Assembly (NCBI GenBank): GCA_029560465.1
Contig: JAKQKX010000016.1
Location: 1,248-65,247, forward strand
Source: Candidatus Omnitrophota bacterium
GTDB lineage: Bacteria > Omnitrophota > Gorgyraeia > Zapsychrales > JANLHA01
Reading direction: 5' to 3'
DNA length: 64,000 nucleotides
Part shown: positions 382-31,081 of the stretch, in pieces
Layout: each line of letters begins with the position of its first letter
Position numbering within the stretch: the first letter of the stretch is position 1
Position numbers and translations under genes: made by a program
Notes under the pieces: model-generated
What the model was told of the DNA's origin: nothing
Databases searched by the model: none
The model's input: the letters and a program-made list of their open reading frames with translations, nothing else

Positions 382-3300
382 ATGAAAAGTAGCCCGCTTT
401 TTAAATTTTCCACCTGGACAGTTCTTTTTTCGTTTTTCTTTTCATTAATCGCCCCTCCGCGCAGTTCTGCGCAAGAATCATTTTCGCTTCCTGATCCCGG
501 AACGATGATCACCATTACCCCCGCTTTCGTACCCCCCATGTTAAAAGGAATGAAAGTGAATTTGGAAGATCCGTTTACCTTCGATTTCATTTTTGACAGC
601 GGGAATGCCAACCTGACCCCAGAAGAATTGAAAAGCGAGGCCAACAAATTAATTAAATATTTTTTGGCATCATTAACCATCCCCGAAGATGACCTGTGGG
701 TCAATTTATCGCCATATGAAAAAGATCGGGTCATTCCGAAAGAATTTGGCGTTACGGAGATGGGGCGAGATTTACTTGGACAGGATTATATTCTTAAACA
801 ATTGACCGCCTCATTGATTTATCCTGAGAAGGATTTAGGAAAAGAATTTTGGAATCGAGTTTTTTCAAAGGCCAGAGCGCTTTACGGCACAGAAGCCATC
901 CCGATTAATACCTTTAACAAAGTTTGGATCCTTCCAGATAAGGCCGTTGTTTATCAAAACCAAGACACAGTGTTTGTCCTGGAAAGCCATTTAAAGGTTA
1001 TGCTGGAAGGAGATTATCTTTCCCTTAAAGAAAATTTAAGCAATAAAAAATTGGGGATCGATAAATTAGACAAAGAGGCTATTCAGAAGCTGAATGATGT
1101 CTCCGCAGCCATTATTAAAGAGGTGGTTATTCCAGAAATTGAAAAAGAAGTTAATAGCGGGCAAAACTTCGCCAAATTGCGGCAGGTGTACCATTCTCTC
1201 ATTTTGGCGAAGTGGTATAAACAGAATCTCAAGGCCAGCATTTTGAATTGGAAATATTCCGATAAAAGAAAAGTGGTGGGGGTCGATGTCGAAGATAAAT
1301 CGATCAATGAAAAGATTTATGAGCAGTATTTGGAAGCCTTTAAGAAAGGCGTTTTTAATTATATTAAGGAGGATTACGACGTTGCCAAGCAGGAAGTTAT
1401 TCCCAGAAAATATTTTTCTGGCGGCATAGAACTTAAAGTCCCTCTTGAGGTGGAAACAGATCCGGCGATGCTGGCTAAAGCAACGTCGACTGGAAAATTA
1501 AACTGGATTAAAGGAATCTATCGTCAGCCCAGAGTTTCCGCCAGATTTGTCAACGAGTATATAAATCAAAAGTTTCGTGAAGGGGCCGTAAAGGAAGGGC
1601 AGCCGATAGACCTGCCTAACGGCAAACAGGCACAAGTCTATACCGTTAAGGGATTGTTAAAATCAACGGGGCAATTTGGGCACATTGGATTAGGAGCAAA
1701 AGAGAGAAAAGGAGCAGAGGTTGTTTATACGGATGGCGGATTACCGGTCATTTATCTGGACAGTGATTATGCTGAAAATTTAACAGTCAGGGATAACGAA
1801 AAATTCAAGGTTGAGAGGTGGGAAGAGCAAAAGATTGCTTTGGGCCGGGAAAGAGGTTTAAGCCGTCCACTGACCGCGCAAGAGATGCGGCAGTGGATCA
1901 AAAACAACACGACACAAGCCGCTGAATTGTTACAGGAATGGGATAGCCAGGCGCCTTCTTTAGTGCCGTTATTTGAAAAAGCGGAAGCAAAGGGGCTGTT
2001 GCCTTCTGATGAAGAAATTGCTGAGACGTACACGAGAGAAGAAGATTTTAGGGATTTAAATTTGGCGGCTGGCCGTTGGGGCATAAGAAGCGCTTCTTCT
2101 CGGGGGATCATGCCACAACACGCAGCGTATACGGTAGAAGCTGGCGAGAGTTACGATGACATAGTCATAAAAGAGCTTGCAAAACAGAGTGGCGTATCCG
2201 TCGATGATTTGGAGGCGAATTTCGAACGGACTGTTTCTATGCTTGAAGAGAGCCTGGGAAAGACCGGTTTTTCCCAACCAAATGCCGATGTGGTCGCTAA
2301 AAAAATACACGAGATATTCGATCGTCTGATCAAGGTTTATCAGACAAAAACGCAGGAAGCGCCGGGACGGTTACGAATTGTAGATGCGAATACTGTGAAT
2401 GCTTTTGTGATTCGCAAGCGCGCGGATGTGTATTTTTACAAGGGGCTATACGAAGCCCTGTACGATATCTCGACGCGGATGAATGTCCCTCTCACGGAAG
2501 ATATGATTGCTTTTATCATAGCGCATGAGCTTTCCCACGCTTTACAACATACATCCCGTCAAGGCCTCGATATCCGTGACCTTAACGAGAAGGCCTCTCC
2601 ATATCTGATTCAAATGATAAAAAATGGTGAGTACGACGCCGATATGAGAGCCCTTGAATTAATGGATAAAGCCGGATATTCAGTATTCGGCGCGGTTGAC
2701 GCGATGACATTTTTAGAATTCATCACGGGAACTAGCCAGGCCGAAAATGTGTTGAGTTCCCACCCGTATGTGAGCCTCAGAAAACACAGGTTATCACAAA
2801 TTATTTTTGATCAGAAAACGAACGTTTTTACTAATGTCAAGGCTTCAAGGGTTCCTATGGTTGGCAATGGTCGCATAAGGAGCCAGGACGTTGATTTTAG
2901 ACATTTAATGGATAAAAGCGAAGAAGAATTGTTGGCCATGGCGCAGAATGCAGAAAGCCTGGTGGCTTTGGATGAGTTAACGGGGATGCTGGTTCTTCGC
3001 AAGCGTATGAATGCGTTGAAAGGTTTAGTGAGAGAGGACCAATTAAAAGCAGCGTTCTTGCGCGATGTTTATGTTCAGGCTGTGCTGGCGGCAACGGGAA
3101 GAACCTCGCAAGGGATTGATTACTCTGACATGAAAGGTGCGGCGGCCATATATGATTTTGGAAAAGAAACAACAACGGAAAACGTCCTTGAAAGAAATGC
3201 GCCGGCATTTGAAGATAATCCAGATGATGTTATAAAAAAGATAAACGAGTCGCTCAAAGATGACGCATCAAGAGAGGGTGTTGCCGCCAAGAATGTGTTG

Positions 3301-6300
3301 GAAGGGTTGATTTCTTCTGGCAACCGGAGAGTTTATGGCCTTACACAGAATGACTTTGATGGATTTTTACTTCCTTTCGAGGATGTTAAGGATATTATTC
3401 CAATATTTACAAAGAGAAAAGGGGGGCTTAGAGGTGTTTTTGTAAGCAGACAAGAAGGCGCGAGTGTTGATCAAACGTTTTTTGAGGACGCAATGCGAGA
3501 CCCCCAAAGACTTATTTCTGCATTTTTCTACGCGAATTATCTTGGCCAGGAACCATCTGTTGAATTTGGTATCCCCACGACGGAAATGCGCGTAAAGTTA
3601 CAAAGAAGAAAGAATGAAGTGTATTTTGAAAATCCTGCTTATCGGGATACCGGGTCAGCGGAGAATAGAAGACATCTTCAAAATATTGTCCTTCTTCATT
3701 ACGCATTGGCAAAAACCCGTTCCAATATATTTGATAAGTATTTAGATGTTTCATTCCCGGGGATCAAGAGGCTTTTGCAAGTACCTGTACCCGATGTTCG
3801 CCAGCTTTTTGACAGGTATGAGACGTTATTTTCTAAGAAGTATCCTCAACCAATAGCAACTCAATTGGCCGGAAAAAGACTTTATGATTATTTTGGTGTG
3901 AAATTAGAAGGTGCCGGGGATGCCCCCACCGGATTCATTAATGAGGTTTCAAATTTTAAAACACAGGCCAAATCCGAATATGCGGAAGAAGAGGCAGGCT
4001 TTGCAGATTATATGAAGAACAAGGTTGGGGAGTTTGTAGATAGCCATCCTTTAATAATTTTTATGCGAACGGCCATACAACAGTATCGAGATCGGTTGTC
4101 GGTTCGGGATATAGAAAAGTTTGAAGAAACATTGGATCAATTGCGGACAAAAAGATTTGAAAAAAACTATAATTCACATTTGGACAGACAAAATATATCA
4201 AATATTTTAACTAAGCTCGCAGTGGTTTATTCACAAGAACCGCGAAGAGAAGCGCATGTTTCCGCTGTGTTTGCAAATGAGACTAGCTTGGAGTATTACC
4301 TCAAGGAAGAAGAAATTTTATCATTTAAGTCATTGCTGGAATTGCCGGATTGGGCCGTGTCTGACTATTTAAACAGAAAAAGCTATAGTGCCAATAAATT
4401 GATTGAGAATGCGCTGAAACAAGGCACGCCTCTAAGCGAAATATTTGCGTTTATGGGAACCCGCCTTGCGTATGCCGATAGACGAGAAGTTTTCGATAGC
4501 TTATTTTTGGGATGGTTCTCCGAGAATTCCAGGTACTTGTTCGATTTCTTTAAAACAAAGCTTAACAATAATTCACAGGAAATAATCGTGTGGTTCCTTG
4601 GGATGTTTTCCAAAAAGGACGCCCTTGAATTAATTGATAAGTTTTCCAGGGGGCTTTTGTACGAGAGAGCCAAAGACGCCCGCACCAATGTCGATGAAGC
4701 CGCGGAATTAAGAAACCTGGCCATTGCCTTGCTTGAATATATTTACAGGCAGACATCAAAGATATTTCACGCCGATGAAGAATCCGCAAAAGTTTATTTG
4801 GACTTAATAAATGAACGTATTGAAGAATCTGGGAAATCGGGAGATCAAAATTATGTGCGAGAGGTGGTTTACAATGCGCTTATGGTCCTGAGCGCTTCGG
4901 TTGCTCTTAAAATAGAATTCAGTCAACCGGAAGAACCTTCTGAGGATGGAACACCAGATTTTAAGTCTCAAAAGACAAGTCTTTTTCAACGGCAGGAATC
5001 TTTGGGGCGGTGGGAGACTGATTATAATTCACAATTTGCGCTCCATAATTTTGGCTGGAATGATAGAAAAGCAGCTTCTCAATCTGTTTTTGTGAGCCGT
5101 TTAACCGATTTATCAGTTGATCAGCTTAAGAAACTTTTAAAACAGAGATTGCGATACGTGGCGTCGCGAGCGGATGTTGAGTATAGAGGCGAAGTGTTTT
5201 CTTTGTCCAGTTTAAATGATTTTTTTGCAAATTTAATCACTTTAATAATATTAAAAAAAACACGTAACCCAGGATGGGAGAACACTAAGGAAAGCTTAAA
5301 CAGGCTCGATGATTTGATGGGCATCAAGGTTTCCTATTCCCAATATGATAAAAAGACATTTGCTATCCATGCGAAAATGAATTTGAAGATAGACCAGGAT
5401 GAAATCAACACAATATCTTACGACGCGATTAAAGAGAATTTTGTCGGGACTACGATCCCCTCTCCAGAACTTGATTATGTGTGGGGAGCTTATGTGGCGG
5501 CAAATGATCTCCATGGTAATTTTCCGGAAATCGTCCCCTTGCTTCAAAATCCCAACGCTGCAAACGAAAGCATTTACAATCCGATTGTTTTTCTCGAAAG
5601 ACACAAATATGGCAGGAGGGTCTCCTATCGACAAATAGTTCAAAAATTTTTTATGGATTCATCCGTTTACTCGAAACTTTTTAATGCCTATTTGAAAGTA
5701 CAGGGGAAAGGATATGTATACGGTAAATTCAGATCATTGGAAGAACGGCTGGCCTGGATAGCAAGAGTGCTGCCGAACAAGTCGATCATAAAAGACAGCA
5801 TTATTAACCTGTGGGAGACCGATATTTTCCCGGAGATAATCGCTGATTTGCCAGTTTTGGTAAAGTTGGCTCGACAGGCTTCCAGTGAGGGAGAAGGTTT
5901 ACTGCGGGATATGTGGGCGATCCTGGGGGAGATGGACGATGATGTGGGCCGATTAAAAAGGTTAAACGAGCAGATTGATTTATCACCAAAAAAAATACAT
6001 CAATTGTTGGATTTCTATGAAACCGTTATCCCTTTAGCGCTGTCACCCCAAAAAATAGCTCGATATGGAGCAACGGCATATATGCTGTGGCGGTTATTGC
6101 CAGAAAACGCCGGATTAGGCCTCTCGGAAAACCTTGAAGCCTTAACGAAATTTATGCCGGAGCCAGGAGTATTAAGAGACGAATTGTTAATGCGGATCGC
6201 AAACAAGTATGCAATGCGTTTGCAAGACGTGCCTCTTGTTTCTGAGAAATTGTATTCCAATAATTTGTTGTCACGAAGCAGGGACTTAAGAACAGAAGAC

Positions 6301-9237
6301 TTCGTTTCCGAGACCCTGTTACATCTGTTCGGTGGAGCAAAAACGGAAGACAGGAGAGATATTTTGTTGTGGGTCGTGGGCGCGCAGAGCAAGCCACTCT
6401 TCATAAGCGACATCGAGAATAAATATAATATTGATTTTACGACTTTGCCTAGCGACATAAAATTGCTTCCGGCAACAATGCGAGAAAAATTTATTGAAGG
6501 GTTCATGCTTGGTGATAATGGAGTCCTGGATCCTCAAAATGATAACGATAGACTCGTTATGTCCGACTTCTTGGAGCGCCTGTTTTTATACCTGTTCCCC
6601 GAGGGAACCAAGGGCATAGGCAACGAGGAGAGGCTGCTTATATCCAAAGTTTTTCTTATTGTTATGAAATCTTTCCCTCCATATCGAAGAGTACAGGTTA
6701 TAAAGGCCTTGGCGGCCCTACGCGTAAAGGCTGATTTTGAAAAAACAAGCACGGGGGAACGGCTGGCCGTCCTTCTGGGAGTGTTAGGGCCCGTTGGGAT
6801 AAAGGTTGCACAGTATTTATCTGAGAACGAAACGCTGGTTTCAGATGAGAAAATGCGCTCGAGCTTAGGCGCACTACGACACAAAGCCCCGGAGATTACA
6901 AAGATTTCAGCGTTTTCCGTGTTGGAGAAGGAAGTCCCCTTGAGTGAAGTATTGGTGCGAGAAATGGGCGAGCCCGTTGGCGTCGCCTCAATCAAACAGG
7001 TTAATCGCGGGGGATGGCTGGATATCGAGACATTAGCTGAATTGGTGATTCGTAAAGCTCGAGGGGCGGATATGAATGAAGTCAGAGAAAAAATGCGCGC
7101 TTATCAGGCTAAGGAAATTCCATTTTCTGAAGCGGTCGCGTTTGTGGTCGAAAAAGCTCAGCAATATAAAATAAATTTGGAGGAGGCCACGGCCTCGGTT
7201 GTTTTTAAAATTCGACGCCCTAATATGGAAACGACCCTCGGCACAGATTTTGCGGCCCTTGATGATGTGGCTCGGGAATTGCAAGGCACGGCTCATAAAG
7301 GCGAAGCCATTAATATCAGCGATTTGGTTCAAACCGTTAAAGAATGGGTGATCCTCGAGATGCTTTTTAGTAATGAGGCAAAGTTTGCCAAGATGCTTAT
7401 GGACCTGGATTATACGTGGTCTGAAAATTTTCAACAGCAGGCAGGGGTAACAATCGTTCATCCCAAAATATTGTATGTGACGGATTCGCTCATTGTTGAG
7501 GAAGAAATTCAAGGAGCCCCCGTATTAAGTCTTGCGCCGAAGCAACAGCCAATAACGATGGAAGACGTAATGGGCGCGGGATATTCCCGTTCCGAGGCTG
7601 AGCGGGTTTTTGTCGCATTGTCCTCAGTTGACCCTCGGCAAGCGCACCTCACGTTAAGTCTTAAGAAAGCCGGATTCCCAGAGGAAGAATTAAGCAACCT
7701 GACTAAAAGAATGCTTGCTTATGACTACGGGAAACTACGCGAGTTATTACGTCAAATGTTGTTGCACCAAATATTTGTTGATGGTGTTTTTCACGCCGAC
7801 CTTCATCAGGGAAACATCCTCATCACGCCTGATGGCAGGCTTGTGATGATAGATTGCGGCAATGTCGGCAGATTAAACAGGGCTCAAATTGAAGGAGCAA
7901 AAATTTTATTAAAAGGATTGTCGCTCAGAGAAAAAGATCTCATAAAACAAGGAGTCGATGAGATTTTCTTAAATGCCACGTATGAAGACGGAGTTCAGCC
8001 GAAAACTCCCAACATAACGTTAGCCGATATACAGGAAATATTGGGTAAAGGATATGACCTGAAAATGACAATGAACTTGATTAGCGTGAGAGCCGTTCAG
8101 GGAGCAAAGAATACCCCCGGCGGGAAGGATTTCTCGACGTTTTTAAAAGCCTTCACCCAAGCCATGTATCTATTTCCCACAGATCTAATAAACGGTATGG
8201 CGACACTACAGGCAATCGCTCAATATATTTCGATGAGCGAGGAGGATGCGATACGTGCGGCTCAAGAGCAAGCAAAGTATTTTGTCGTGCAGGAGGTAGA
8301 CACGGCTGAGGGAGAAGCCGAAGCTCAAGGAGATATATTACAGATAGCGGAAAGGATTTTTTATAAAAAAACAGAGCGGTCTTTCTTACGTTCGGTATGG
8401 CGACCCATGGTTTTTCGTATGCTGGCAGCTCCTATAAAAAGAGCGACCGCCAAAGCCCCGTCTATAGGAAGCAATGTGATGTCACTTGTTAGGGTGCAGG
8501 GCCGGCAAATTATAGAAGAAAATATTAATGAATTTTTAAAAAGACAGAATTCCGAAATTGGGGATGTAGTGAAGGACATGATATCCGTTCCATTTGCAGA
8601 GAAGTTTGTGACCTCTTATGTGGAGCGTGGCATGAAAGAAAGTCGAGGAGGAAAATTCTTAGCCCCCATCGCGATGCCTTTGTTGAAAGGCGTACTATTC
8701 TTAGTCCGGCCGTTGACGAGGATATATGTTGAGGCTGCCAAAGAATGGGTTGATACCACGGGGAAACAGTATATCGCAAGCATTGCCCCGCACATGACGA
8801 TAAGAGAAGGGATTGATCTTTTATCACAGGTGTTTGTGGACGATTTTTCGAGTATAAAAAAGAAATTTGATGAAGGACGAACCAATGGTGAATCCGTCCC
8901 CCTGGCCACGGAGCCGTTATCAGATATCCGAGTTAGGGAGGACATGCACGGAGGTTCTCAATTAGGCAATGAGAAAACTCTGTTTGCAACCGAAACAAGT
9001 TCTTCGGTTCAACAAAATCCAGGCGGTATTGATTTTAATCTCGATTTGTTGGAGCTTGAAATTCATGGGCAGGAGAGTGATTTTAATTTGCCCAATGTTA
9101 ATCAGAATTTCGACCACATTCAAATAGATGACGGTCTTTTGCCGGTGATTATTAATATAACCCCGATCACGACAACGCTCCCTATCATTTTAGGCACGGC
9201 TGAGAGCGAAAAACAGCAATTGACCAGTGTTCAATAA
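382..9237 (+). CDS. Very large (2951 aa) secreted/surface multidomain protein with an internal M48-type zinc metallopeptidase module and an ABC1/UbiB-type atypical kinase module
   Basis: Uninterrupted 8.8-kb ORF. N-terminal hydrophobic signal-like segment (WTVLFSFFFSLIAPPRSSA|QE). HEXXH (IIAHELSHALQH, nt ~2521-2550) is followed ~35 aa later by EYDADMRALEL (EXXAD), the hallmark pair of M48/HtpX-type peptidases. Further on, LGPVGIKVAQYLS (nt ~6781) ... VVFKIRRP ... FHADLHQGNILITPDGRLVMIDCGNVGRL (nt ~7795) matches ABC1/UbiB kinase motifs (LGPTFIKLGQ / FHADPHPGN...DFG). The N-terminal ~320 aa and C-terminal ~60 aa are shared with the 766-aa protein at 44123-46306. Confidence 0.85.
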   Translation: MKSSPLFKFSTWTVLFSFFFSLIAPPRSSAQESFSLPDPGTMITITPAFVPPMLKGMKVNLEDPFTFDFIFDSGNANLTPEELKSEANKLIKYFLASLTIPEDDLWVNLSPYEKDRVIPKEFGVTEMGRDLLGQDYILKQLTASLIYPEKDLGKEFWNRVFSKARALYGTEAIPINTFNKVWILPDKAVVYQNQDTVFVLESHLKVMLEGDYLSLKENLSNKKLGIDKLDKEAIQKLNDVSAAIIKEVVIPEIEKEVNSGQNFAKLRQVYHSLILAKWYKQNLKASILNWKYSDKRKVVGVDVEDKSINEKIYEQYLEAFKKGVFNYIKEDYDVAKQEVIPRKYFSGGIELKVPLEVETDPAMLAKATSTGKLNWIKGIYRQPRVSARFVNEYINQKFREGAVKEGQPIDLPNGKQAQVYTVKGLLKSTGQFGHIGLGAKERKGAEVVYTDGGLPVIYLDSDYAENLTVRDNEKFKVERWEEQKIALGRERGLSRPLTAQEMRQWIKNNTTQAAELLQEWDSQAPSLVPLFEKAEAKGLLPSDEEIAETYTREEDFRDLNLAAGRWGIRSASSRGIMPQHAAYTVEAGESYDDIVIKELAKQSGVSVDDLEANFERTVSMLEESLGKTGFSQPNADVVAKKIHEIFDRLIKVYQTKTQEAPGRLRIVDANTVNAFVIRKRADVYFYKGLYEALYDISTRMNVPLTEDMIAFIIAHELSHALQHTSRQGLDIRDLNEKASPYLIQMIKNGEYDADMRALELMDKAGYSVFGAVDAMTFLEFITGTSQAENVLSSHPYVSLRKHRLSQIIFDQKTNVFTNVKASRVPMVGNGRIRSQDVDFRHLMDKSEEELLAMAQNAESLVALDELTGMLVLRKRMNALKGLVREDQLKAAFLRDVYVQAVLAATGRTSQGIDYSDMKGAAAIYDFGKETTTENVLERNAPAFEDNPDDVIKKINESLKDDASREGVAAKNVLEGLISSGNRRVYGLTQNDFDGFLLPFEDVKDIIPIFTKRKGGLRGVFVSRQEGASVDQTFFEDAMRDPQRLISAFFYANYLGQEPSVEFGIPTTEMRVKLQRRKNEVYFENPAYRDTGSAENRRHLQNIVLLHYALAKTRSNIFDKYLDVSFPGIKRLLQVPVPDVRQLFDRYETLFSKKYPQPIATQLAGKRLYDYFGVKLEGAGDAPTGFINEVSNFKTQAKSEYAEEEAGFADYMKNKVGEFVDSHPLIIFMRTAIQQYRDRLSVRDIEKFEETLDQLRTKRFEKNYNSHLDRQNISNILTKLAVVYSQEPRREAHVSAVFANETSLEYYLKEEEILSFKSLLELPDWAVSDYLNRKSYSANKLIENALKQGTPLSEIFAFMGTRLAYADRREVFDSLFLGWFSENSRYLFDFFKTKLNNNSQEIIVWFLGMFSKKDALELIDKFSRGLLYERAKDARTNVDEAAELRNLAIALLEYIYRQTSKIFHADEESAKVYLDLINERIEESGKSGDQNYVREVVYNALMVLSASVALKIEFSQPEEPSEDGTPDFKSQKTSLFQRQESLGRWETDYNSQFALHNFGWNDRKAASQSVFVSRLTDLSVDQLKKLLKQRLRYVASRADVEYRGEVFSLSSLNDFFANLITLIILKKTRNPGWENTKESLNRLDDLMGIKVSYSQYDKKTFAIHAKMNLKIDQDEINTISYDAIKENFVGTTIPSPELDYVWGAYVAANDLHGNFPEIVPLLQNPNAANESIYNPIVFLERHKYGRRVSYRQIVQKFFMDSSVYSKLFNAYLKVQGKGYVYGKFRSLEERLAWIARVLPNKSIIKDSIINLWETDIFPEIIADLPVLVKLARQASSEGEGLLRDMWAILGEMDDDVGRLKRLNEQIDLSPKKIHQLLDFYETVIPLALSPQKIARYGATAYMLWRLLPENAGLGLSENLEALTKFMPEPGVLRDELLMRIANKYAMRLQDVPLVSEKLYSNNLLSRSRDLRTEDFVSETLLHLFGGAKTEDRRDILLWVVGAQSKPLFISDIENKYNIDFTTLPSDIKLLPATMREKFIEGFMLGDNGVLDPQNDNDRLVMSDFLERLFLYLFPEGTKGIGNEERLLISKVFLIVMKSFPPYRRVQVIKALAALRVKADFEKTSTGERLAVLLGVLGPVGIKVAQYLSENETLVSDEKMRSSLGALRHKAPEITKISAFSVLEKEVPLSEVLVREMGEPVGVASIKQVNRGGWLDIETLAELVIRKARGADMNEVREKMRAYQAKEIPFSEAVAFVVEKAQQYKINLEEATASVVFKIRRPNMETTLGTDFAALDDVARELQGTAHKGEAINISDLVQTVKEWVILEMLFSNEAKFAKMLMDLDYTWSENFQQQAGVTIVHPKILYVTDSLIVEEEIQGAPVLSLAPKQQPITMEDVMGAGYSRSEAERVFVALSSVDPRQAHLTLSLKKAGFPEEELSNLTKRMLAYDYGKLRELLRQMLLHQIFVDGVFHADLHQGNILITPDGRLVMIDCGNVGRLNRAQIEGAKILLKGLSLREKDLIKQGVDEIFLNATYEDGVQPKTPNITLADIQEILGKGYDLKMTMNLISVRAVQGAKNTPGGKDFSTFLKAFTQAMYLFPTDLINGMATLQAIAQYISMSEEDAIRAAQEQAKYFVVQEVDTAEGEAEAQGDILQIAERIFYKKTERSFLRSVWRPMVFRMLAAPIKRATAKAPSIGSNVMSLVRVQGRQIIEENINEFLKRQNSEIGDVVKDMISVPFAEKFVTSYVERGMKESRGGKFLAPIAMPLLKGVLFLVRPLTRIYVEAAKEWVDTTGKQYIASIAPHMTIREGIDLLSQVFVDDFSSIKKKFDEGRTNGESVPLATEPLSDIRVREDMHGGSQLGNEKTLFATETSSSVQQNPGGIDFNLDLLELEIHGQESDFNLPNVNQNFDHIQIDDGLLPVIINITPITTTLPIILGTAESEKQQLTSVQ

Positions 9238-23940: not shown

Positions 23941-23982
23941 GGGCAACAAATTATTTGCAATCAGAAGTTTCTGCGTCATAAT

Positions 23983-24020
23983 AAGGGCAGGCTTAAAAGC
24001 CTGCCCTTATGTTATTTCCA
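23983..24020 (+). terminator. Rho-independent terminator after nadE
   Basis: aagggcaggc-ttaaaa-gcctgccctt followed by a T-rich tract. Confidence 0.6.
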
Positions 24021-24118
24021 ACTGTCGGGGGCTAGTGCCTCGATGCGTTCCGGGAGGAATAAAGATTAAAATTTAATCGCTAAAAATGTGGAGTCAAGAC
24101 AGAATAAAGGAGGTCCCT

Positions 24119-24592
24119 GTGAAAAGATGGTGTGTGCTCGTTGGATTTTTGTTGTGTGTTTTAGGCTGTGAACAGAAAAAAGAAGTCAGAATTGATATCC
24201 CCGCCCCGAATCCGGATAAGCATGATTTTATGAAAGAAGGGGTTGATTACTTGCAGGAAGCCAAAATCCCGGAAGCGATCCGGAGTTTTGACGAAGCGAT
24301 TAAGCAGAATCCGGTTGACCCGCAGCCCTATATGGTGCTGGGCCAGACGTATATGCGCATTAATGATTATACCCGGGCGATCGATACCTTTTCAGCGGCG
24401 CTGCGGGTTTCTCCTGATAAAGGGGAATTGCATTATTTGATCGCGCTGAACTACCGGCTCCTGGGGGAAATGGACTTGGCCCGCAAGAACGCGGAAATAA
24501 GCATTGAAATGTTCCGTCAAAAACAGGATGAAAAGAATTTCCTGTTGGCCTTGACCCTGCTGCAGAGCCTGTCGCAGGAACAGGAGGAATAA
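24119..24592 (+). CDS. TPR-repeat lipoprotein
   Basis: Likely GTG start 9 nt after AGGAGG. Lipobox LLCVLGC. TPR helices (AIRSFDEAIKQNPVDPQPYMVLGQTYMRINDYTRAIDTFSAALRVSP). Confidence 0.65.
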   Translation: MKRWCVLVGFLLCVLGCEQKKEVRIDIPAPNPDKHDFMKEGVDYLQEAKIPEAIRSFDEAIKQNPVDPQPYMVLGQTYMRINDYTRAIDTFSAALRVSPDKGELHYLIALNYRLLGEMDLARKNAEISIEMFRQKQDEKNFLLALTLLQSLSQEQEE

Positions 24593-24596
24593 CGCA

Positions 24597-25070
24597 TTGG
24601 GCAGAAGGCACCGCATGACCTCCTTTTTTTCTTTTTTGACCTTTGTCCTGGTTCTGTCGCCGGCTATGATTCTTTTCCCTTCCTCCTGCGCGTGCTCCGA
24701 GGCCCCGCCGGACAGCAAAGAAATATTGTACAATTTACGGTTAAAACAGGAAGATATCCGGGATATTTACCTGAAGAAAAGACAGGAATTAGCCGGGGAT
24801 TTTCAGGAAAAGCTCCAAGAGCTCCGTGCGGAAGGGCACGACTCGGAAGCTATCCGGGCCGCGATGGAAGATTATAAGTATCAGCAGCGGTCTCTTAAGG
24901 CGGCGTATCGGAAAGTCATGAAGGAGACTCAGTCGAAAATCAACGCCCTGAAAATGAAAGACGGGGGATATTCTTCAGACGTGTCCGTCATTCAGCTTTT
25001 GCAGCCCAAGGTGGATACGTATTGCCCGCCGACTTTATACGAAAGAGTGTTGTTGAATATCAGGTGTTGA
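24597..25070 (+). CDS. Hypothetical secreted/coiled-coil protein
   Basis: 157 aa. Hydrophobic N-terminus and charged helical region. No recognisable catalytic motif. Confidence 0.5.
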   Translation: MGRRHRMTSFFSFLTFVLVLSPAMILFPSSCACSEAPPDSKEILYNLRLKQEDIRDIYLKKRQELAGDFQEKLQELRAEGHDSEAIRAAMEDYKYQQRSLKAAYRKVMKETQSKINALKMKDGGYSSDVSVIQLLQPKVDTYCPPTLYERVLLNIRC

Positions 25071-25119: not shown

Positions 25120-25452
25120 GTGATGAAATATACAATTGAAAATATATTATCCGGGTTCCCGGATTCAAGCCGGGAAGAAAAATTCACGAGCCTTTTGAAG
25201 ACCCGGGAGTTTTTGCTGGAGCGCATTGTTTCCTCGGGACAAATTACGCCGCCGGGGGAATGGCTTTCGCAGGAGAAGCATGAATGGGTGCTGCTGTTAA
25301 AAGGCCGGGCGCGGCTGCGTTTCCGAGAGGCGGATGGCCTCTGTCAGATGGAACCCGGAGACGCGGTGTTGATCCCGGCCGGGTGTTTTCACCGGGTCGA
25401 GTGGACTGACCCGGGCCAAAAAACCGTATGGTTAGCCCTGCATTACGCATGA
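25120..25452 (+). CDS. Cupin-domain protein
   Basis: 110 aa. Cupin-like motif GDAVLIPAGCFHRVEW. Confidence 0.6.
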   Translation: MMKYTIENILSGFPDSSREEKFTSLLKTREFLLERIVSSGQITPPGEWLSQEKHEWVLLLKGRARLRFREADGLCQMEPGDAVLIPAGCFHRVEWTDPGQKTVWLALHYA

Positions 25453-27641
25453 TCCTTTTTTTTGCCCTCGCGGTTATCTCGACCCTTTCGGCGTTTCCAT
25501 CGTTTTTGTCCTGTTACGGGTTCTGGCCGGCCGCCTGGTTTTGCCTGGTCCCTTTGTTTTTTTTCTTGGGCCTTTTCAGCGACCCGTGGCGCCGGGTTTT
25601 GGCCGGCGGTTTTTTCGGGATTTGTTTTTATGCGCTTTTGGTGAGGTGGTTTGTCCCTTATAGCCTGCCGGGATATTTATTTTTTGTCCTTTTATTGAGT
25701 GTTCAACCCCTGATTTTCGCGGGATTTTTTCTCCCGCCGTTTCAGCCCAGGATGTTCCGGCTTTTTTATTGGCCGGCTTTGTGGACAGCGAGTGAATATG
25801 CCCGGCGGATTATCATGCGGGGATTTTCCTGGGACCTCGGTTGTTCCCAGGCATTTAACGGGCATATTCTGCAGTGGGCCAGCTTGGGTGGCTCGGGCCT
25901 GATTTCATTTCTTTTGGTCTTGTGTAACACCTGTTTTTATGAGGCGGTGCGGGCACGGAAGCAACGGTTGTTTTATATCAGGGCGCTGGTCGCGGTGAAC
26001 CTGCTGGCCTGGGCCGGGGGGGCGGCGCAGTATTATTTTTATCCCGGCGCAAGGAGCCCGCGGCGACTGTTGCGCGCAGCCGTCGTGCAAGCGGCCGTGG
26101 ACCCTCGAGAAAAACTCGATACCTGGCGGGTGAACCGGATCGTGGAGTCTCACGTCCGCTTGTCGTCTTCGCTTCCTCCCTCGGCCTCCGCAGAGATCAT
26201 TATTTGGCCGGAGACCGCGGTCCCGCAGGATCTCCGGCAGGACCCGTTTTTAAAGAAAAGGGTTGTTGATCTGTGCCGGAACCAGGGGGCGGGCGTGTTA
26301 ACTGGGATGGCGTGGGAGGATGAGGTAGGCCGTTTGTATAACGGGGCGGCCTGGGTCAGCCCTGAGGGGGCCATCCTGGAAATTTACCGTAAGAAATATT
26401 TGGTCCCTTTCAGCGAAGAACAGCCCTGGTCCGGGCCGCTCGGGGCGGTTTTAGAAAAAAGCCGGGGCAAGGACGCGTATCATTTCTCCCGGGGGCAGGG
26501 GTTGGGCGTGCTGCCGTTGTCTTCTATCCGCCCGGGCCTTGCCGGTTCCCTGGGCGTGGCAATTTGTTCGGAAGACACAATCAGCGCTCTTTTCCGCCGC
26601 TACGCGCGCGCCGGCGTCGGGTTGATGGTTGTGCTTTTAAACGACGGCTGGTTTAAAGATCCGGCCGCCCTGGTTCAGCACGCGCAGAATTCGATCCTGC
26701 GGGCGGTGGAAACCCGTTGCCCGGTCCTGCGGGCCACGAACAGCGGGTGGACCTGTTTGATCGATCCCCTCGGGCGCGTACACACTCCTTCGGGGGTGGA
26801 ATGGATGAAGGCTGGCGCCGGGATCATCAATTTCGACGCGTTTTCCGGACAGCCCCCTTATGTTTTTATTGGAGACACCTTTTGCATTTTATCAGCAGCG
26901 TTTGTTATAATAAGCCTGCTTTTATCCAAAATAAGGGGGCTATCAAAGGATTTTGTTATGAAAGTGTTTTTATGTTTATTGGGGATTTCTCTTGGGGTTT
27001 TGGGGTGCCCTTTGTTGTGTGAAGCCGGAGGGGTGGCGGCCCGGAAACAGCAGGGGGTCCGGGTGCGCCCCCAGATTCAGGTCCAACCGTCTGCGCCGGG
27101 CCGCTCCGGGGTTTGGCCGGCATCCGCGCCCGGGAGCCCGGCTGAAGACACGGCTGGGAAACAAGCGGCCCCGACGCCGTCATTGATCCCGAAACAGTCT
27201 TATCCGGAGAGCCGGGTCCTGACCAGCGCGCCGGGATACTCCGGCGCGGGCGGCTTTGATTCCGGGCGTGGCGCGCCGGGAGCGGATATGACCGCGGAAG
27301 AAAGCCTGATGCAGCTTTTGGCCGTGCTTGAGGAGTCCAGTGGAATCTGGATAAAAATCAGCGATGTTAATTATAAAAATCTGGTTGTTTCCCAGCATAT
27401 CGAACGTTACCGGCAGGAAGGGGTGCTGATCCGTAAACCCGCGGCGTATTATGCGCAGTTTATCACCACCATGGGGGAGGGGAACCCGGCGCTTTTATCC
27501 CGGCCGTTTTCAGAGCTTTTGCGGCTGGCCGCGATCATGGAATATGATTTTGAAAACGGGCAAAACAAAGACGCGATGGCGCGCTCGGTTCTCGGCGATG
27601 ATATGTATAAAGTCAACAGGAAACGGCTCGGTATGCCATGA
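25428..27641 (+). CDS. lnt: Apolipoprotein N-acyltransferase (Lnt) with ~250-aa C-terminal extension (extra TM, Pro/Ala/Gly-rich linker, conserved ~115-aa domain)
   Basis: N-terminal polytopic region followed by a CN-hydrolase domain (IIIWPETAVPQDL...; AICSEDTISALFRRYARAGVGLMVVLLNDGWF). After the usual last TM, the same ORF continues without a stop. The continuation is MKVFLCLLGISLGVLGC (lipobox-like), then a PAPG-rich linker, then a domain ~40% identical to the C-terminus of the 29386-30030 protein. Confidence 0.85.
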   Translation: MVSPALRMILFFALAVISTLSAFPSFLSCYGFWPAAWFCLVPLFFFLGLFSDPWRRVLAGGFFGICFYALLVRWFVPYSLPGYLFFVLLLSVQPLIFAGFFLPPFQPRMFRLFYWPALWTASEYARRIIMRGFSWDLGCSQAFNGHILQWASLGGSGLISFLLVLCNTCFYEAVRARKQRLFYIRALVAVNLLAWAGGAAQYYFYPGARSPRRLLRAAVVQAAVDPREKLDTWRVNRIVESHVRLSSSLPPSASAEIIIWPETAVPQDLRQDPFLKKRVVDLCRNQGAGVLTGMAWEDEVGRLYNGAAWVSPEGAILEIYRKKYLVPFSEEQPWSGPLGAVLEKSRGKDAYHFSRGQGLGVLPLSSIRPGLAGSLGVAICSEDTISALFRRYARAGVGLMVVLLNDGWFKDPAALVQHAQNSILRAVETRCPVLRATNSGWTCLIDPLGRVHTPSGVEWMKAGAGIINFDAFSGQPPYVFIGDTFCILSAAFVIISLLLSKIRGLSKDFVMKVFLCLLGISLGVLGCPLLCEAGGVAARKQQGVRVRPQIQVQPSAPGRSGVWPASAPGSPAEDTAGKQAAPTPSLIPKQSYPESRVLTSAPGYSGAGGFDSGRGAPGADMTAEESLMQLLAVLEESSGIWIKISDVNYKNLVVSQHIERYRQEGVLIRKPAAYYAQFITTMGEGNPALLSRPFSELLRLAAIMEYDFENGQNKDAMARSVLGDDMYKVNRKRLGMP

Positions 27642-27677
27642 GAGGCCCGGAGGGGGGCAGGAAAGGATGAGTTTCGC

Positions 27678-29399
27678 ATGAGGAAGAAAATGCCAGGTTT
27701 TTCCATTTCCGGCGCGTACACCGCGTTCCTTATTATTTTTATTGTTTTGATGACGGCCTGGCTGGGGCGGACCACCTGTTATATCAACGCCTGGCCATCG
27801 GACTCTGCGGCTTCGTATATTCCGACCGCCGCGAAATTGTTTGAGATGCGTTTTTTTTCGCAGATGCATGACCTGCACCTGCATGGGCTGAGCAGGCTTA
27901 ACATGAGGGGAAAAGAGGCGCTCATCGTTGATATCGCTATCCTGCAGCGGATCCTGGGAGACACAGAAAGCCTTTATCCGAACATCCTTTTATTGATCCT
28001 GTCCTGCGGGCTGTCCTCCGGGCTTCTTTTTCTGATTTTTAAGAAATTTTTTAATGCCACGGCCGGATTTGTCGCGTTTGTGCTTTTTGCCTTTAGTTTC
28101 TGGCCGTATATGTATGTCCTTTTGGGCGCGCACCAGCCCCTGGTCCTCTGCAATTTTCTTCTTTCGTTTTTCTTCCTGCAGCGTGCGGGTCCAAGGCGCG
28201 TTTATCTTTTCCTGGGCGGGCTGTTTTTTGGCCTGACTTTTTTTTCTTCCCCCACCGCTATTATGTATATGCCGTATTATGGGTTGCTGTTGTTGGCGGA
28301 TCATCAGGATTTCCGGCTCTCCCGCGTGTTTTCCAAGAAAACCGGCCAGGGGTTTTTGTTCTTTTTCGCCGGCCTGGCCGGGGTCCTACTGGCCTTTACG
28401 CTGCCGCGGCCTTTAGAGAGCCTGAAAATGTTTATTATCTATGTTTTTTTAAGCCGCGGAGGCAACCATTTTCAGTATTACGCGGATTACTTGAGCCGAT
28501 TTTTTGCGGTACCCGCTTTTTTGCGGGGAGGCGGATGGCTCTGGATTTTTAAATATTTTACGCTGACCATGCCTATCCTGTTTGCCGCGTGCGGGGTCAG
28601 CATGGCCTACCTCTTGACCCGCTCGTCTAAGCCCAGGAGGACGTTTATGCTGGTCCTCCTAGGGCTTTCCACGCCTCTGGCCGTGGAGATTATTCAGGTG
28701 GCCCAGTTCGGCCGGAATTATTTTTCCTGGTTTTTCGGGATGATTTTTCTGCTCTGCGCGGCGGTGGGATGTTACATGAACAATCACGCGCCGTTCGTTT
28801 GGAAAAAGCACAAGGTTTTTTCCGTGTCGTTAGCGGTTTTTCTGTTATGCCATGTCGTTTTTAATGCGCGTGTTTTTTTTAAAGATATCCTGCCGTCCCG
28901 CCTGGCTACGACATACGCGTATGAATGGCTACGGGAACGGAATATCGGGCAGGTGCTCGTTTACCAGGATCATCACAGCAACACATTCGCGGCGGATGTG
29001 TTGAATAATCCCAAATCACCCGTAAAAATCGAGTTCCGGGGCATCCGCTCTTTCCTGCAGGCCCGGACCGGGTATATCCTTTTGCCGGGAATCAGTGGAA
29101 CGACGATCTGGCAGGATTGTTCCCGGGACCCGTTTACCGGCGATCCGCCCTTGCAGGGGATTATTGCGGCCGGGCTTCTGCCCGAATGCGCGGCGGCCCG
29201 GTTTCCAACAGTGGCGTCGAGCCGGTACTGGCCGCAGGAAGAAGAAGTCTGCACGTACCGGGACCTTATGCTGGGGCAGGTGTCTGAGCAAACCCGCCGT
29301 TTGAGTGAAATTTATATTCTGGATGTGGCCTGTTTGCGAAAAGTTTACTTCGAGCAAGTTTTAAAAAACAGGGAAGAAGGGGAGCATGATGAAAAATAG
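27678..29399 (+). CDS. Large polytopic membrane protein (10-12 TM) with C-terminal soluble domain; possible GT-C-fold glycosyl/arabinosyl-transferase-like protein
   Basis: 573 aa. Many hydrophobic helices (FVAFVLFAFSFWPYMYVLL, LVLCNFLLSFFFL, ...). C-terminal ~190-aa hydrophilic domain. The family assignment is an inference from topology only. Confidence 0.6.
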   Translation: MRKKMPGFSISGAYTAFLIIFIVLMTAWLGRTTCYINAWPSDSAASYIPTAAKLFEMRFFSQMHDLHLHGLSRLNMRGKEALIVDIAILQRILGDTESLYPNILLLILSCGLSSGLLFLIFKKFFNATAGFVAFVLFAFSFWPYMYVLLGAHQPLVLCNFLLSFFFLQRAGPRRVYLFLGGLFFGLTFFSSPTAIMYMPYYGLLLLADHQDFRLSRVFSKKTGQGFLFFFAGLAGVLLAFTLPRPLESLKMFIIYVFLSRGGNHFQYYADYLSRFFAVPAFLRGGGWLWIFKYFTLTMPILFAACGVSMAYLLTRSSKPRRTFMLVLLGLSTPLAVEIIQVAQFGRNYFSWFFGMIFLLCAAVGCYMNNHAPFVWKKHKVFSVSLAVFLLCHVVFNARVFFKDILPSRLATTYAYEWLRERNIGQVLVYQDHHSNTFAADVLNNPKSPVKIEFRGIRSFLQARTGYILLPGISGTTIWQDCSRDPFTGDPPLQGIIAAGLLPECAAARFPTVASSRYWPQEEEVCTYRDLMLGQVSEQTRRLSEIYILDVACLRKVYFEQVLKNREEGEHDEK

Positions 29400-30030
29400 T
29401 GTCTGTCAGGCGGGTTGGTGCCTTGATATGATCAGCCTCTGGTGCATGCTGGTCATCTTTTTGACCCTCCTCCAGGGGAGGGCCTTGGCCGGTGGCGCGG
29501 CCGCCATGAAGAAACAACGTGGCCCGCAAATACAGCAGAGGATGATGCAGGAGGAGATGATCCAGCAGCGGGTCTTGCAGGAGACAGCGCGGCAGGAACA
29601 TTTGGCTCAGCAACACGCCTCGTTCCGGGAACAAGAAGCCAAGACCCGCGCGTTGTCTTCCGAGCAACTGGGCGTTCAATCGGAAGCGGACTTTTCCGAT
29701 GTGATCCAGGATCTCTTCAGGACAAGCCGCGCCTGGACACTGATGGTGGATGCGGACGCGAAAGAAGCGGTGGTCGCATATTTTTTAAAAGAGTTTCGCG
29801 GGAAAGGAATTGTGATTCAGAAACCGGCGTGGTATTATGCCGGTCTTATTGAATCGATGTCCCAGGAGTCTCCGGAAATGCTGGCCCAGCCCTTTGACCG
29901 GGTCTTGCAGGTGGTGGCAATTATCGAGTATGATTATGAAAACGGCCAGGATAAAGACATGCTGGCTTATCAGATTCTGGGCAGCAAGGAGGCCGTGGTC
30001 CAGAATCGGCAACGGTTGGGCCTTCCATGA
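29386..30030 (+). CDS. Secreted protein; Gln-rich N-terminal half and conserved C-terminal domain shared with the Lnt extension
   Basis: 214 aa. Signal peptide (MISLWCMLVIFLTLLQGRALAGGAAA). C-terminus ...VIQKPAWYYAGLIESM...PFDRVLQVVAIIEYDYENGQDKDMLAYQILG...NRQRLGLP aligns with the Lnt C-terminus ...LIRKPAAYYAQFITTM...PFSELLRLAAIMEYDFENGQNKDAMARSVLG...NRKRLGMP. Confidence 0.6.
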   Translation: MMKNSVCQAGWCLDMISLWCMLVIFLTLLQGRALAGGAAAMKKQRGPQIQQRMMQEEMIQQRVLQETARQEHLAQQHASFREQEAKTRALSSEQLGVQSEADFSDVIQDLFRTSRAWTLMVDADAKEAVVAYFLKEFRGKGIVIQKPAWYYAGLIESMSQESPEMLAQPFDRVLQVVAIIEYDYENGQDKDMLAYQILGSKEAVVQNRQRLGLP

Positions 30031-30045
30031 TCAGAGGGGGACAGG

Positions 30046-30933
30046 ATGGCGGATGCGGATATTTTAAAAACACTTTTAAGCGTTGTTGAAAAAGGCGGGT
30101 TCCTGGCGGACAGCATGATTCATGACAGCAAGCCGTCGCTGAAGCCGGATCAATCGGTCCTGACCCGGGCGGACAAAGCGGTTTCCGAGCTGGTCCGGGA
30201 CAGCCTTAAAGGATTTTTGGCCACAGGCGAGCATGCCCTGGTTGACGAAGAAGACCCTGGGAGCGCGCAGCTTTTTGGGCCGGTCATGTCCGGCGCGTAT
30301 CAATATGTTTGGTCCCTGGATCCTATCGACGGGACAAGGGCGTATTCCAACCAGATGCCGGTTTACGGGGTGTCCCTGGGGGTCCTGCGCGACGGACAGC
30401 CGTGGATGGGGGCTGTTTTCTTTCCGTCTTTGCGGGAATTTTATTATTGCAACGGCCCGGAGGCCTTTTTTGTGCGGAACGCTTTCACGCCTTCGGCCTC
30501 TGAACAACGGATCGGCCCGCTGGACCAGGACATCACCCCGCAATCGGTCTTTTTGTCCTCCGATCATTTTTTGCGCCGGTACCGATGGGACACGGCGTTT
30601 TGCCAGATCATGATGCCCACGGTGGCCGTGGTGGAGCTGTGCTGGCCGGCCATTGGCCGGGGATGTGGCAGTTATTTCGAAGCCAACTTCTGGGATTTTG
30701 CCGGGGCTTGGCCGGTGTTCCGCGCGGCCGGATTGGACCTGCGTTGCTGCAAAACCGGACAGGTCCTGGACCGGTTACGGAGAGACGCTTTTATCGGGAA
30801 AGGTCCAAAAACCTGGCGCATGAGCGGTGATTATATTTTATCTTCCAGCCGTAATTATCCTCTTATTAAGAAGCACATCAAGCCTTTTCCTGCCTGGCTT
30901 AAGGTGGCGTGGAAAGCCGTTCCCATGATGTAA
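30046..30933 (+). CDS. Inositol-monophosphatase-family phosphatase
   Basis: 295 aa. IMPase signature WSLDPIDGTRAY. RBS agaggggg. Confidence 0.75.
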   Translation: MADADILKTLLSVVEKGGFLADSMIHDSKPSLKPDQSVLTRADKAVSELVRDSLKGFLATGEHALVDEEDPGSAQLFGPVMSGAYQYVWSLDPIDGTRAYSNQMPVYGVSLGVLRDGQPWMGAVFFPSLREFYYCNGPEAFFVRNAFTPSASEQRIGPLDQDITPQSVFLSSDHFLRRYRWDTAFCQIMMPTVAVVELCWPAIGRGCGSYFEANFWDFAGAWPVFRAAGLDLRCCKTGQVLDRLRRDAFIGKGPKTWRMSGDYILSSSRNYPLIKKHIKPFPAWLKVAWKAVPMM

Positions 30934-31053: not shown

Positions 31054-31081
31054 TTGACAAAAAGCCTTAAAATGATATATT
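31054..31081 (+). promoter_or_regulatory. Sigma70-like promoter (TTGACA-16nt-TATATT) for carA-carB-purF-pyrG
   Basis: ccCTTGACAAAAAGCcttaaaatgaTATATTg. Shares the 14-mer CCTTGACAAAAAGC with the amt leader promoter. Confidence 0.55.

Follow-up and report, generated by a model that had tools for sequence, protein, structure and literature searches.

We know of no accessory protein of the apolipoprotein N-acyltransferase Lnt in Gram-negative bacteria, and the Omnitrophota are uncultured, poorly understood bacteria of ultra-small size, perhaps dependent on hosts. The sole documented Lnt fusion that we found in the literature is Ppm1 (Rv2051c) of Mycobacterium tuberculosis, a bi-domain protein composed of Lnt and a polyprenol-phosphate-mannose synthase, with ppm2 and ppm1 being adjacent separate genes in M. 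smegmatis and Corynebacterium (PMC3460810); on Lnt or lipoproteins in Omnitrophota, our literature search found nothing. Canonical Gram-negative Lnt proteins, such as those of E. coli and P. aeruginosa (PDB 5N6H, 5XHQ, 5VRG, 6NWR), feature an LNT_N domain, a periplasmic nitrilase-like domain, the triad motifs and a final TM helix, and stop a few residues past the latter (alignments end at query position ~493-502). The Lnt encoded in the window analyzed here, a 64,000-nucleotide stretch of Candidatus Omnitrophota DNA, shares all of these elements but extends for 230 residues more. We propose, with a probability of about 0.6, that it belongs to an envelope operon conserved in Omnitrophota, and that lnt has here become fused with a downstream partner gene. 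The locus comprises the following features:

23981..24010, + strand: terminator-like hairpin with a 13-bp stem, 3' of nadE (sequence)
24086..24592, + strand: small TPR protein with a lipobox-like N-terminus, LCVLGC (Pfam TPR_16 and others)
24597..25070, + strand: 157-aa protein with a hydrophobic segment at its N-terminus, no family match
25120..25452, + strand: small cupin protein (Cupin_2; C-terminal half of TIGR03890)
25428..26957, + strand: Lnt core, apolipoprotein N-acyltransferase (TIGR00546, E 7e-74; motifs against 6nwr; hydropathy scan)
26945..26960, + strand: apparent gene-boundary relic, SD-like AAAGGA (26945-26950) plus in-frame ATG (26958-26960) (sequence; junction comparison with L057, L007 and L008; ATGA overlaps in relatives)
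26958..27026, + strand: former Sec signal peptide MKVFLCLLGISLGVLGCPLLCEA (hydropathy; AxA followed by GGA[VA]A[KR], conserved in homologs)
27027..27299, + strand: low-complexity linker rich in Pro, Ala, Gly and Ser
27300..27641, + strand: copy A of a shared ~112-aa all-alpha domain, stop codon included
27678..29399, + strand: GT-C fold glycosyltransferase (PMT_2/GT39-like)
29386..30030, + strand: 214-aa secreted protein with signal peptide, Gln-rich linker and copy B of the domain (29689-30027)
30046..30933, + strand: inositol-monophosphatase-family gene, a conserved downstream neighbor

The hairpin is the probable upstream limit of the transcription unit, and the inositol-monophosphatase-family gene is probably its last gene before a carA promoter-like site at 31054-31081. 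The TPR-protein gene precedes lnt across Omnitrophota (conserved synteny in L001, L003, L007-L010 and others), and the 157-aa protein is confined to the window's clade. The cupin stop overlaps the probable true start of lnt at 25449 in an ATGA arrangement (gene calls in L054), and the public gene call of the GT-C protein begins at 27690.

The Lnt core scores 249 bits against TIGR00546 (cut-off 133), and both PF20154 and PF00795 exceed their gathering scores, corresponding to the LNT_N membrane domain followed by the CN_hydrolase module. The IIWPE, YRKKYLVPF and AICSE segments align with the E. coli Lnt motifs of the catalytic Glu-Lys-Cys triad (6nwr_A), and the putative activity is N-acylation of diacylglyceryl-Cys lipoproteins. 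The hydropathy scan places the last canonical TM helix at aa 481-499, followed by a basic loop (SKIRGLSKDFV), and in aa 505-737 of the ORF no GT2 and no other Pfam or NCBIfam domain was found. To judge from the junction, this extension is no native part of Lnt but a neighboring gene captured via a small frame change: in relatives the lnt stop overlaps or adjoins the site 26945..26960, the window lacks this stop, and its ATG at 26958-26960 is, by the same comparison, the old start of the downstream gene. The segment encoded from this ATG had been described as lipoprotein-signal-like in the sequence-only reading, and it is a type-I signal peptide instead, with a predicted SPase-I site between CEA and GG. 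The window has LGVLGC, the Cys of which is displaced or missing in L007 and L008 and absent in most family members; a lipoprotein reading of MKVFLCLLGISLGVLGC was rejected, as this Cys is not conserved and the AxA site with its following GGA[VA]A[KR] is. The linker, which is the fastest-evolving portion (comparison with P0206), opens with a conserved mature N-terminus, GGVAARKQQG. Given this conservation, we considered that Lnt might N-acylate the mature Gly of the partner, making the latter a substrate, and regard this as highly improbable.

A one-base sequencing or assembly error joining two genes could produce the same picture, and precisely such an artefact is present in L005: compared with the finished chromosome L008, a G-run there has one G too many, which produces a spurious in-frame junction; the single ORF of L026, for its part, runs through an N-run. 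L005 was discarded as independent support for fusion and L026 was set aside. The window is a different case: three more assemblies, drawn from two data sources, match it exactly over 4.7 kb, a fourth source supplies a 98% variant that is also fused, with a substitution and no indel at the junction, and no long homopolymer is found there. An artefact in the window is thereby largely refuted and, in our view, hardly credible, and the long extension noticed earlier is real, its fused junction recurring in further assemblies. The near-identical false fusion in the noisy long-read contig L005 nonetheless means that each fusion call needs a check at the nucleotide level.

The duplication of the C-terminal domain also held up, with copies A and B being members of a true, previously unannotated family of 449 clusters at 50% identity, which has a confident fold and no annotation, is essentially limited to Omnitrophota and could receive a family model. 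Its members begin with a Sec signal peptide that has an AxA cleavage site, and the mature chain then opens with a conserved GGA[V/A]A[K/R]. A low-complexity stalk follows, which measures 45-300 aa and is in most cases rich in Gln and Ala, and eight helices form the C-terminal domain, whose core EYDxxNGQxKD...LG...N+xRLG is invariant. None of 18 members has a Pfam or NCBIfam match, a search of PDB sequences with the domain returned nothing meaningful (best match E 0.035, in the low-complexity part), and Foldseek against the PDB gave no match. The small periplasmic all-alpha proteins HdeA/HdeB, YmgD, Rap1a and Tai4 show 6-10% identity to the domain. These proteins span ~75-100 residues, as opposed to ~112 residues and about eight helices here, and neither a Pfam HdeA match among the 18 members nor any conserved Cys or Cys pair (alignment A3) was found; the genomic context differs from that of Rap1a/Tai4 in that no T6SS effector gene, such as a cognate Tae/Ssp amidase, lies beside the domain gene. 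In the 214-aa protein, signal-peptide cleavage is predicted after ALA, at ~29490. Copy B clusters with the genes that adjoin lnt in other Omnitrophota and is therefore apparently the ancestral ortholog; copy A falls in a divergent paralog clade present only in GT-C-bearing genomes.

The link between Lnt and the domain, proposed from this single locus, proved more than local: about 20 of the 31 core-subfamily loci lie directly 3' of lnt, and in most genomes the two genes are separate and tightly coupled, typically through a 4-nt ATGA or GTGA stop/start overlap. Among ~25 pairs there are at least three independent fusions, with the fused lineages being those of the window, L007, L033/L035 and L034, in which a small indel within the final codons of lnt skips the stop. 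Such a phylum-conserved, usually translationally coupled pair, fused at least three times, constitutes 'Rosetta-stone' evidence for physical or pathway partnership. The two genes could instead be neighbors with no functional link, held together by a phylum-wide syntenic housekeeping block, with the 4-nt overlap easing accidental in-frame fusion and the product being tolerated because signal peptidase or an internal start yields two normal proteins. A long nadE...carAB block is indeed conserved among relatives, the fusions sit only at tree tips with unfused sister lineages, and in L003, L022, L037 and many other contexts the domain gene is retained away from lnt. The window fusion moreover keeps its SPase-I (AxA) site plus the internal SD and ATG, so the same mature domain protein is probably still released from it. 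The fusions of L033 and L035, however, have no internal SD, so that the fusion protein there must function, and the pair is kept together in L026 and L034, where all other neighbors differ. Together with the number of independent fusions and the shared compartment of the Lnt and domain moieties, these observations render mere neighborhood unlikely, albeit with an appreciable chance of being correct.

Under the preferred operon-and-fusion reading, with the Lnt C-terminus on the cytoplasmic side, topology predicts that the old signal peptide would insert as a ninth TM helix, bringing the stalk and domain to the periplasm, the compartment of the Lnt catalytic domain. There, as the gene context suggests, the domain may act with Lnt on lipoproteins as a non-enzymatic binding or chaperone-like module, which could, for example, receive or present lipoproteins around the N-acylation step. 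The window's clade has also acquired the fused copy, an additional and divergent one, together with the GT-C gene, inserted between lnt and the ancestral copy. Overall, the data suggest that Lnt has a working partner in the cell envelope, supplied by an undescribed protein family. Of the sequence-only proposal of a periplasmic module for lipoprotein or envelope-glycolipid maturation, the tie to Lnt thus extends beyond this locus; the lipoprotein or glycolipid role is drawn from gene context, and paralogs of the domain also adjoin S41 proteases and occur in unrelated contexts. By analogy with Rap1a/Tai4 immunity proteins or TPR-lipoprotein/protease pairs, the domain might act in the periplasm on envelope hydrolases (Ctp/Prc-type S41 proteases, peptidoglycan hydrolases), as their regulator, adaptor or inhibitor, with lnt adjacency being secondary. 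This is very doubtful, as the window's operon contains no hydrolase gene, the fold scores lie in a grey zone and the repeated fusion to Lnt specifically is left unexplained.

The suspected GT-C nature of the 573-aa protein is confirmed by its match to PF13231 (34.5 bits against a gathering score of 26.1, E 2.9e-8) and by fold comparison, which alone succeeded where a phmmer search of PDB sequences gave no match. The protein features an N-terminal multi-TM module and a periplasmic domain, a WPxDS motif directly after TM1 (P40, D42 and S43 invariant in 42 sequences), which provides the acidic residue that GT-C enzymes conserve in their first extracytoplasmic loop, and a C-terminal soluble alpha/beta domain (~aa 420-573); its homologs carry the NCBI name 'glycosyltransferase family 39 protein'. 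Compared to PMT_2 / GT39-GT83 enzymes (protein O-mannosyltransferases, ArnT), it has no MIR domains and fits no one subfamily. ALG12, Pmt4, ArnT and STT3B score alike in the fold comparison, which does not single out a protein Ser/Thr acceptor with a polyprenol-P-mannose donor. The three-gene association is present in the window, L004, L005/L008, L007 and L057 but not beyond this small clade, and the GT-C protein was therefore dropped as a general partner of the domain.

Compatible with the preferred reading, the Pro/Ser/Thr-rich stalk of the Lnt-fused copy might, in the window's clade, be O-glycosylated by the adjacent GT-C enzyme, which would mirror in Omnitrophota the Lnt-Ppm1-Pmt axis of actinobacteria; a Lnt/glycosylation link has precedent (PMC3460810). 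Pmt4 and Pmt2 are among the top structural matches of the PMT_2/GT39-like protein, its gene is flanked by two secreted-protein genes, and in 4/4 GT-C lineages the lnt-adjacent copy has a P+S+T fraction of 0.27-0.34 and Q of ~0.1, with the second copy being Gln-rich. The correlation nevertheless reflects one evolutionary event (n=1), and PST-rich stalks without a nearby GT-C gene occur in L015 and L020, so such stalks are not an exclusive GT-C marker. ArnT, ALG12 and STT3 fit the model as well as PMTs, so that a lipid or glycan is also conceivable as acceptor, and more distant GT-C homologs reside elsewhere, in sugar-nucleotide clusters without a domain gene. We consider stalk glycosylation improbable.

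The lnt-domain pair suggests that lipoprotein biogenesis in Omnitrophota involves a new periplasmic component. A bolder version, in which the family is a dedicated Lnt partner for an Omnitrophota-specific lipoprotein maturation or hand-off step and the stalk is additionally a GT-C substrate in the window's clade, appears quite unlikely; if true, it would add an accessory lipoprotein-maturation step absent from knowledge of model diderms, and the way in which actinobacteria couple acylation and glycosylation through Lnt-Ppm1-Pmt would have a parallel of separate origin that faces the periplasm. In both Ppm1 and the window's protein, Lnt forms the N-terminal part, and relatives encode the partner in an adjacent ORF of its own, fusion being limited to some lineages; the Ppm1 theme likewise includes a GT-C (Pmt) enzyme (PMC3460810). 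The Ppm1 partner, however, is a GT2 PPM-synthase enzyme domain, whereas the window's Lnt carries no C-terminal GT2 domain, and its partner is unannotated, has no enzyme signature and, unlike that of Ppm1, is preceded by an extra TM helix/signal peptide that would place it in the periplasm.

The three open reading frames proposed by the sequence-only reading are all present, and they lie between a terminator-like hairpin and a promoter match whose placement makes it plausible, as predicted from sequence, that the intervening genes form one transcription unit comprising a TPR gene, a 157-aa gene, a cupin gene, the Lnt-domain fusion, a GT-C gene (PMT_2/GT39-like glycosyltransferase fold), a second domain gene and an inositol-phosphate phosphatase gene:

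23981-24010, strong terminator-like hairpin, after nadE
24086-24592, + strand, small TPR protein with a lipobox-like N-terminus, a conserved upstream neighbour of lnt
24597-25070, + strand, 157-aa unannotated protein with an N-terminal hydrophobic segment
25120-25452, + strand, small cupin resembling the C-terminal half of TIGR03890 (Nif11/cupin)
25428-27641, + strand, ORF of 737 aa, Lnt plus extension
27678-29399, + strand, ORF of 573 aa, GT-C middle gene
29386-30030, + strand, ORF of 214 aa, secreted domain protein
31054-31081, best promoter match, before carA

The 157-aa and cupin genes sit between the TPR gene and lnt in the window's clade only (loci L007, L008 and L057), and the stop codon of the cupin gene overlaps the probable start of lnt.

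The initial ~500 residues of the first ORF are a bona fide Lnt (TIGR00546, E 7e-74, 249 bits against a cut-off of 133), in which Pfam matches both LNT_N and CN_hydrolase and the Glu/Lys/Cys triad motifs align with those of the solved E. coli Lnt, whose sequence stops at the equivalent of window residue ~500. In a hydropathy scan, aa 481-499 form the last canonical TM helix; beyond it lie a basic loop (SKIRGLSKDFVMK) and a hydrophobic segment at aa 513-531, after which come an Ala/Gly/Pro/Ser-rich linker and a terminal domain of ~112 aa (copy A). The suspected duplication of this domain was borne out: copy A aligns with the C-terminus of the 214-aa protein (copy B) at 42% identity over 105 residues (E 2e-28), and a family HMM run against the six-frame translation of the window returned exactly these two matches. 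We looked for a hidden stop or frameshift between the Lnt core and its extension and found none in three other assemblies of the window lineage (two from ENA samples, one from a JGI sample), each matching window 25401-30100 at 100% identity with the gene called at 730 aa, nor in P0206, a variant at 98% identity that comes from a fourth source and is an ungapped 730-aa protein whose junction differs by substitution rather than indel. The window junction contains no long homopolymer. The 14 differences in P0206 affect about 1.2% of the Lnt core, 5.9% of the linker and 1.7% of the domain, indicating that both ends are conserved while the linker drifts. The lnt-domain fusion in the window is real.

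The fused partner belongs to a novel family. A search with the two-copy alignment returned only short standalone proteins (115-198 aa), an exhaustive profile search 449 clusters at 50% identity, and a genome scan 47 loci, essentially all from Omnitrophota. Members share a Sec signal peptide with a terminal small-x-small site, a conserved GGA[V/A]A[K/R] immediately after it, a low-complexity, usually Gln/Ala-rich stalk of 45-300 aa, and a C-terminal domain with the invariant aligned core EYDxxNGQxKD...LG...N+xRLG; none of the 18 aligned domain members matches Pfam or NCBIfam. AlphaFold predicts from the 18-sequence alignment a compact bundle of about eight helices (pLDDT 90, pTM 0.81), whose resemblance to small periplasmic all-alpha proteins would be consistent with a non-enzymatic periplasmic binding module. 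Assignment to HdeA/HdeB, YmgD, Rap1a or Tai4 was dropped, since identity to these is at most 10%, the domain alignment holds no conserved cysteine pair and a Foldseek search of the PDB with the domain gave no match. The 568-aa protein P0017 combines a signal peptide with ~240 aa rich in Gln, Ala and Lys and with about three tandem domain copies, in which HMMER matches four stretches; the full NGxxKD...N+RR core survives in the last copy alone. A divergent subfamily (L040-L052, e.g. L049 4652-8333) of ~160-aa proteins has an N-terminal anchor without the GGAVA motif, lipobox-like in L046 (MATAC), and its genes sit at the end of a conserved gene order (GT2, GspK-like pseudopilin, S41/PDZ tail-specific protease, domain gene), with two convergent genes of ~480 and ~160 aa, both unannotated, downstream.

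In published Lnt crystal structures the chain emerges on the cytoplasmic side after its last TM helix, so the captured signal peptide is predicted to recross the membrane as a ninth TM helix, which would put stalk and domain in the periplasm, beside the Lnt catalytic domain. The window's CEA|GG matches the AxA|GG sites of standalone proteins, and signal peptidase I is thus predicted probably still to free the mature protein.

The domain gene lies directly downstream of lnt in about 20 of the 31 core-subfamily loci. Among the 15 unfused pairs with an assignable partner start, stop and start overlap (ATGA/GTGA) in eight, are 2-4 nt apart in two and are separated by 58-188 nt in five. Nucleotide comparison of the window with L007, L008, L057 and others reveals the junction histories: on the finished chromosome L008 (OY759724.1) the lnt TGA overlaps the GTG start of the partner; the sister lineage L057-L062, seen in at least six assemblies, has TAG, 4 nt and ATG; L007 is fused and, near an A-run, one base shorter than L057; and the window, also fused, has a different junction sequence, retaining AAAGGA 7 nt upstream of an in-frame ATG at 26958. 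L033/L035 and L034 also hold in-frame fusions, and no SD-like sequence precedes any in-frame start in L033 and L035, so the domain there is probably made solely as part of Lnt. In an approximate NJ tree, fusions occupy three or four separate positions. Two apparent fusions are artefacts: the L026 ORF crosses an N-run, and the noisy long-read contig L005 (ena ERZ21831251 ctg3242l) has one extra G relative to L008, where the true GTGA overlap is visible, homopolymer indels also splitting its GT-C gene into four pieces.

The proposed three-gene association is present but narrow: GT-C is flanked by two domain genes in the window's clade only (window, L004, L005/L008, L007, L057), and a 43%-identical GT-C homolog belongs to a sugar-nucleotide cluster that lacks a domain gene. 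On the NJ tree copy B groups with lnt-adjacent genes of other genomes and copy A belongs to a divergent clade found only in GT-C genomes, so copy A and GT-C look like a clade-specific insertion between lnt and its ancestral partner. Stalks in this clade are Pro/Ser/Thr-rich (0.27-0.34) in the fused copy and Gln-rich in the second; PST-rich stalks are found also with no GT-C nearby. Tandem domain genes directly after lnt without an intervening GT-C (L012 1671-2939; L017 5779-7168) indicate that partner duplication arose, or persisted, outside this clade.

Tight coupling, repeated fusion and a common compartment suggest a partnership with Lnt, as do L026 and L034, which keep the pair among otherwise entirely different neighbours; this persistence also speaks against a less likely alternative, that the genes are adjacent merely through housekeeping-block synteny. 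That alternative would fit the pair's place within a long syntenic housekeeping block, the confinement of fusions to tree tips, the other neighbours at nine core loci, the position of the divergent subfamily after GspK-like and S41/PDZ protease genes, and loci L003, L022 and L037, where lnt is absent and the domain gene directly adjoins the TPR gene, a pairing that may be as conserved as that with lnt. The proposed tie to lipoprotein or envelope-glycolipid maturation is partly supported: the Lnt extension and the shared domain stand, adjacency to lnt and repeated fusion add to them, and the function is suggested by gene context only. We hold the evolutionary and architectural account of the fusion with high confidence; that the domain works with Lnt on lipoproteins is a tentative reading of gene context; and we give the combined account of fusion history and Lnt function a probability of roughly 0.6.

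Elsewhere, only two parts of a 2951-aa ORF (382-9237, +) in a lower-GC stretch (0.40-0.45 vs ~0.52) are recognisable: aa 640-739 are an M48 peptidase region, and aa 2259-2518 are ABC1 atypical kinase-like. Omnitrophota are known for very long ORFs (PMC10066038). Across the operon, locus L055 does not differ from the window, and 3' of carA (L055 10339-12412, compared with window ~32318 onward) full-length carB gives way to a 290-aa ORF (CPSase_L_D1 plus cupin) and a gene for an MCP-type chemoreceptor, either a strain-level rearrangement or a chimeric assembly. MAGs behind L007, L009, L010, L013-L015, L018, L019, L021, L027 and L036, L016, and L037 are titled Planctomycetales/Planctomycetia, Patescibacteria or Elusimicrobia; most, though several do not, carry Omnitrophota-type TPR-lnt-domain-carA synteny, and the DNA of L007, one of those titled Planctomycetales, has about 79% identity to that of the window; the taxonomic titles therefore look unreliable.

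The fusion evidence is genuine and reproducible, and points in a testable way to a possible accessory factor of Lnt; among the papers searched, none dealt with Lnt or lipoprotein maturation in Omnitrophota. In M. tuberculosis, Ppm1 (Rv2051c) is a bi-domain Lnt and PPM synthase whose parts are adjacent ORFs in other Actinobacteria (PMC3460810). Whereas its partner is a PPM synthase, that of Omnitrophota is periplasm-directed and carries neither enzyme signature nor family annotation; Ppm1 is nonetheless the closest precedent, being, like the window's protein, fused in some lineages and adjacent in others.
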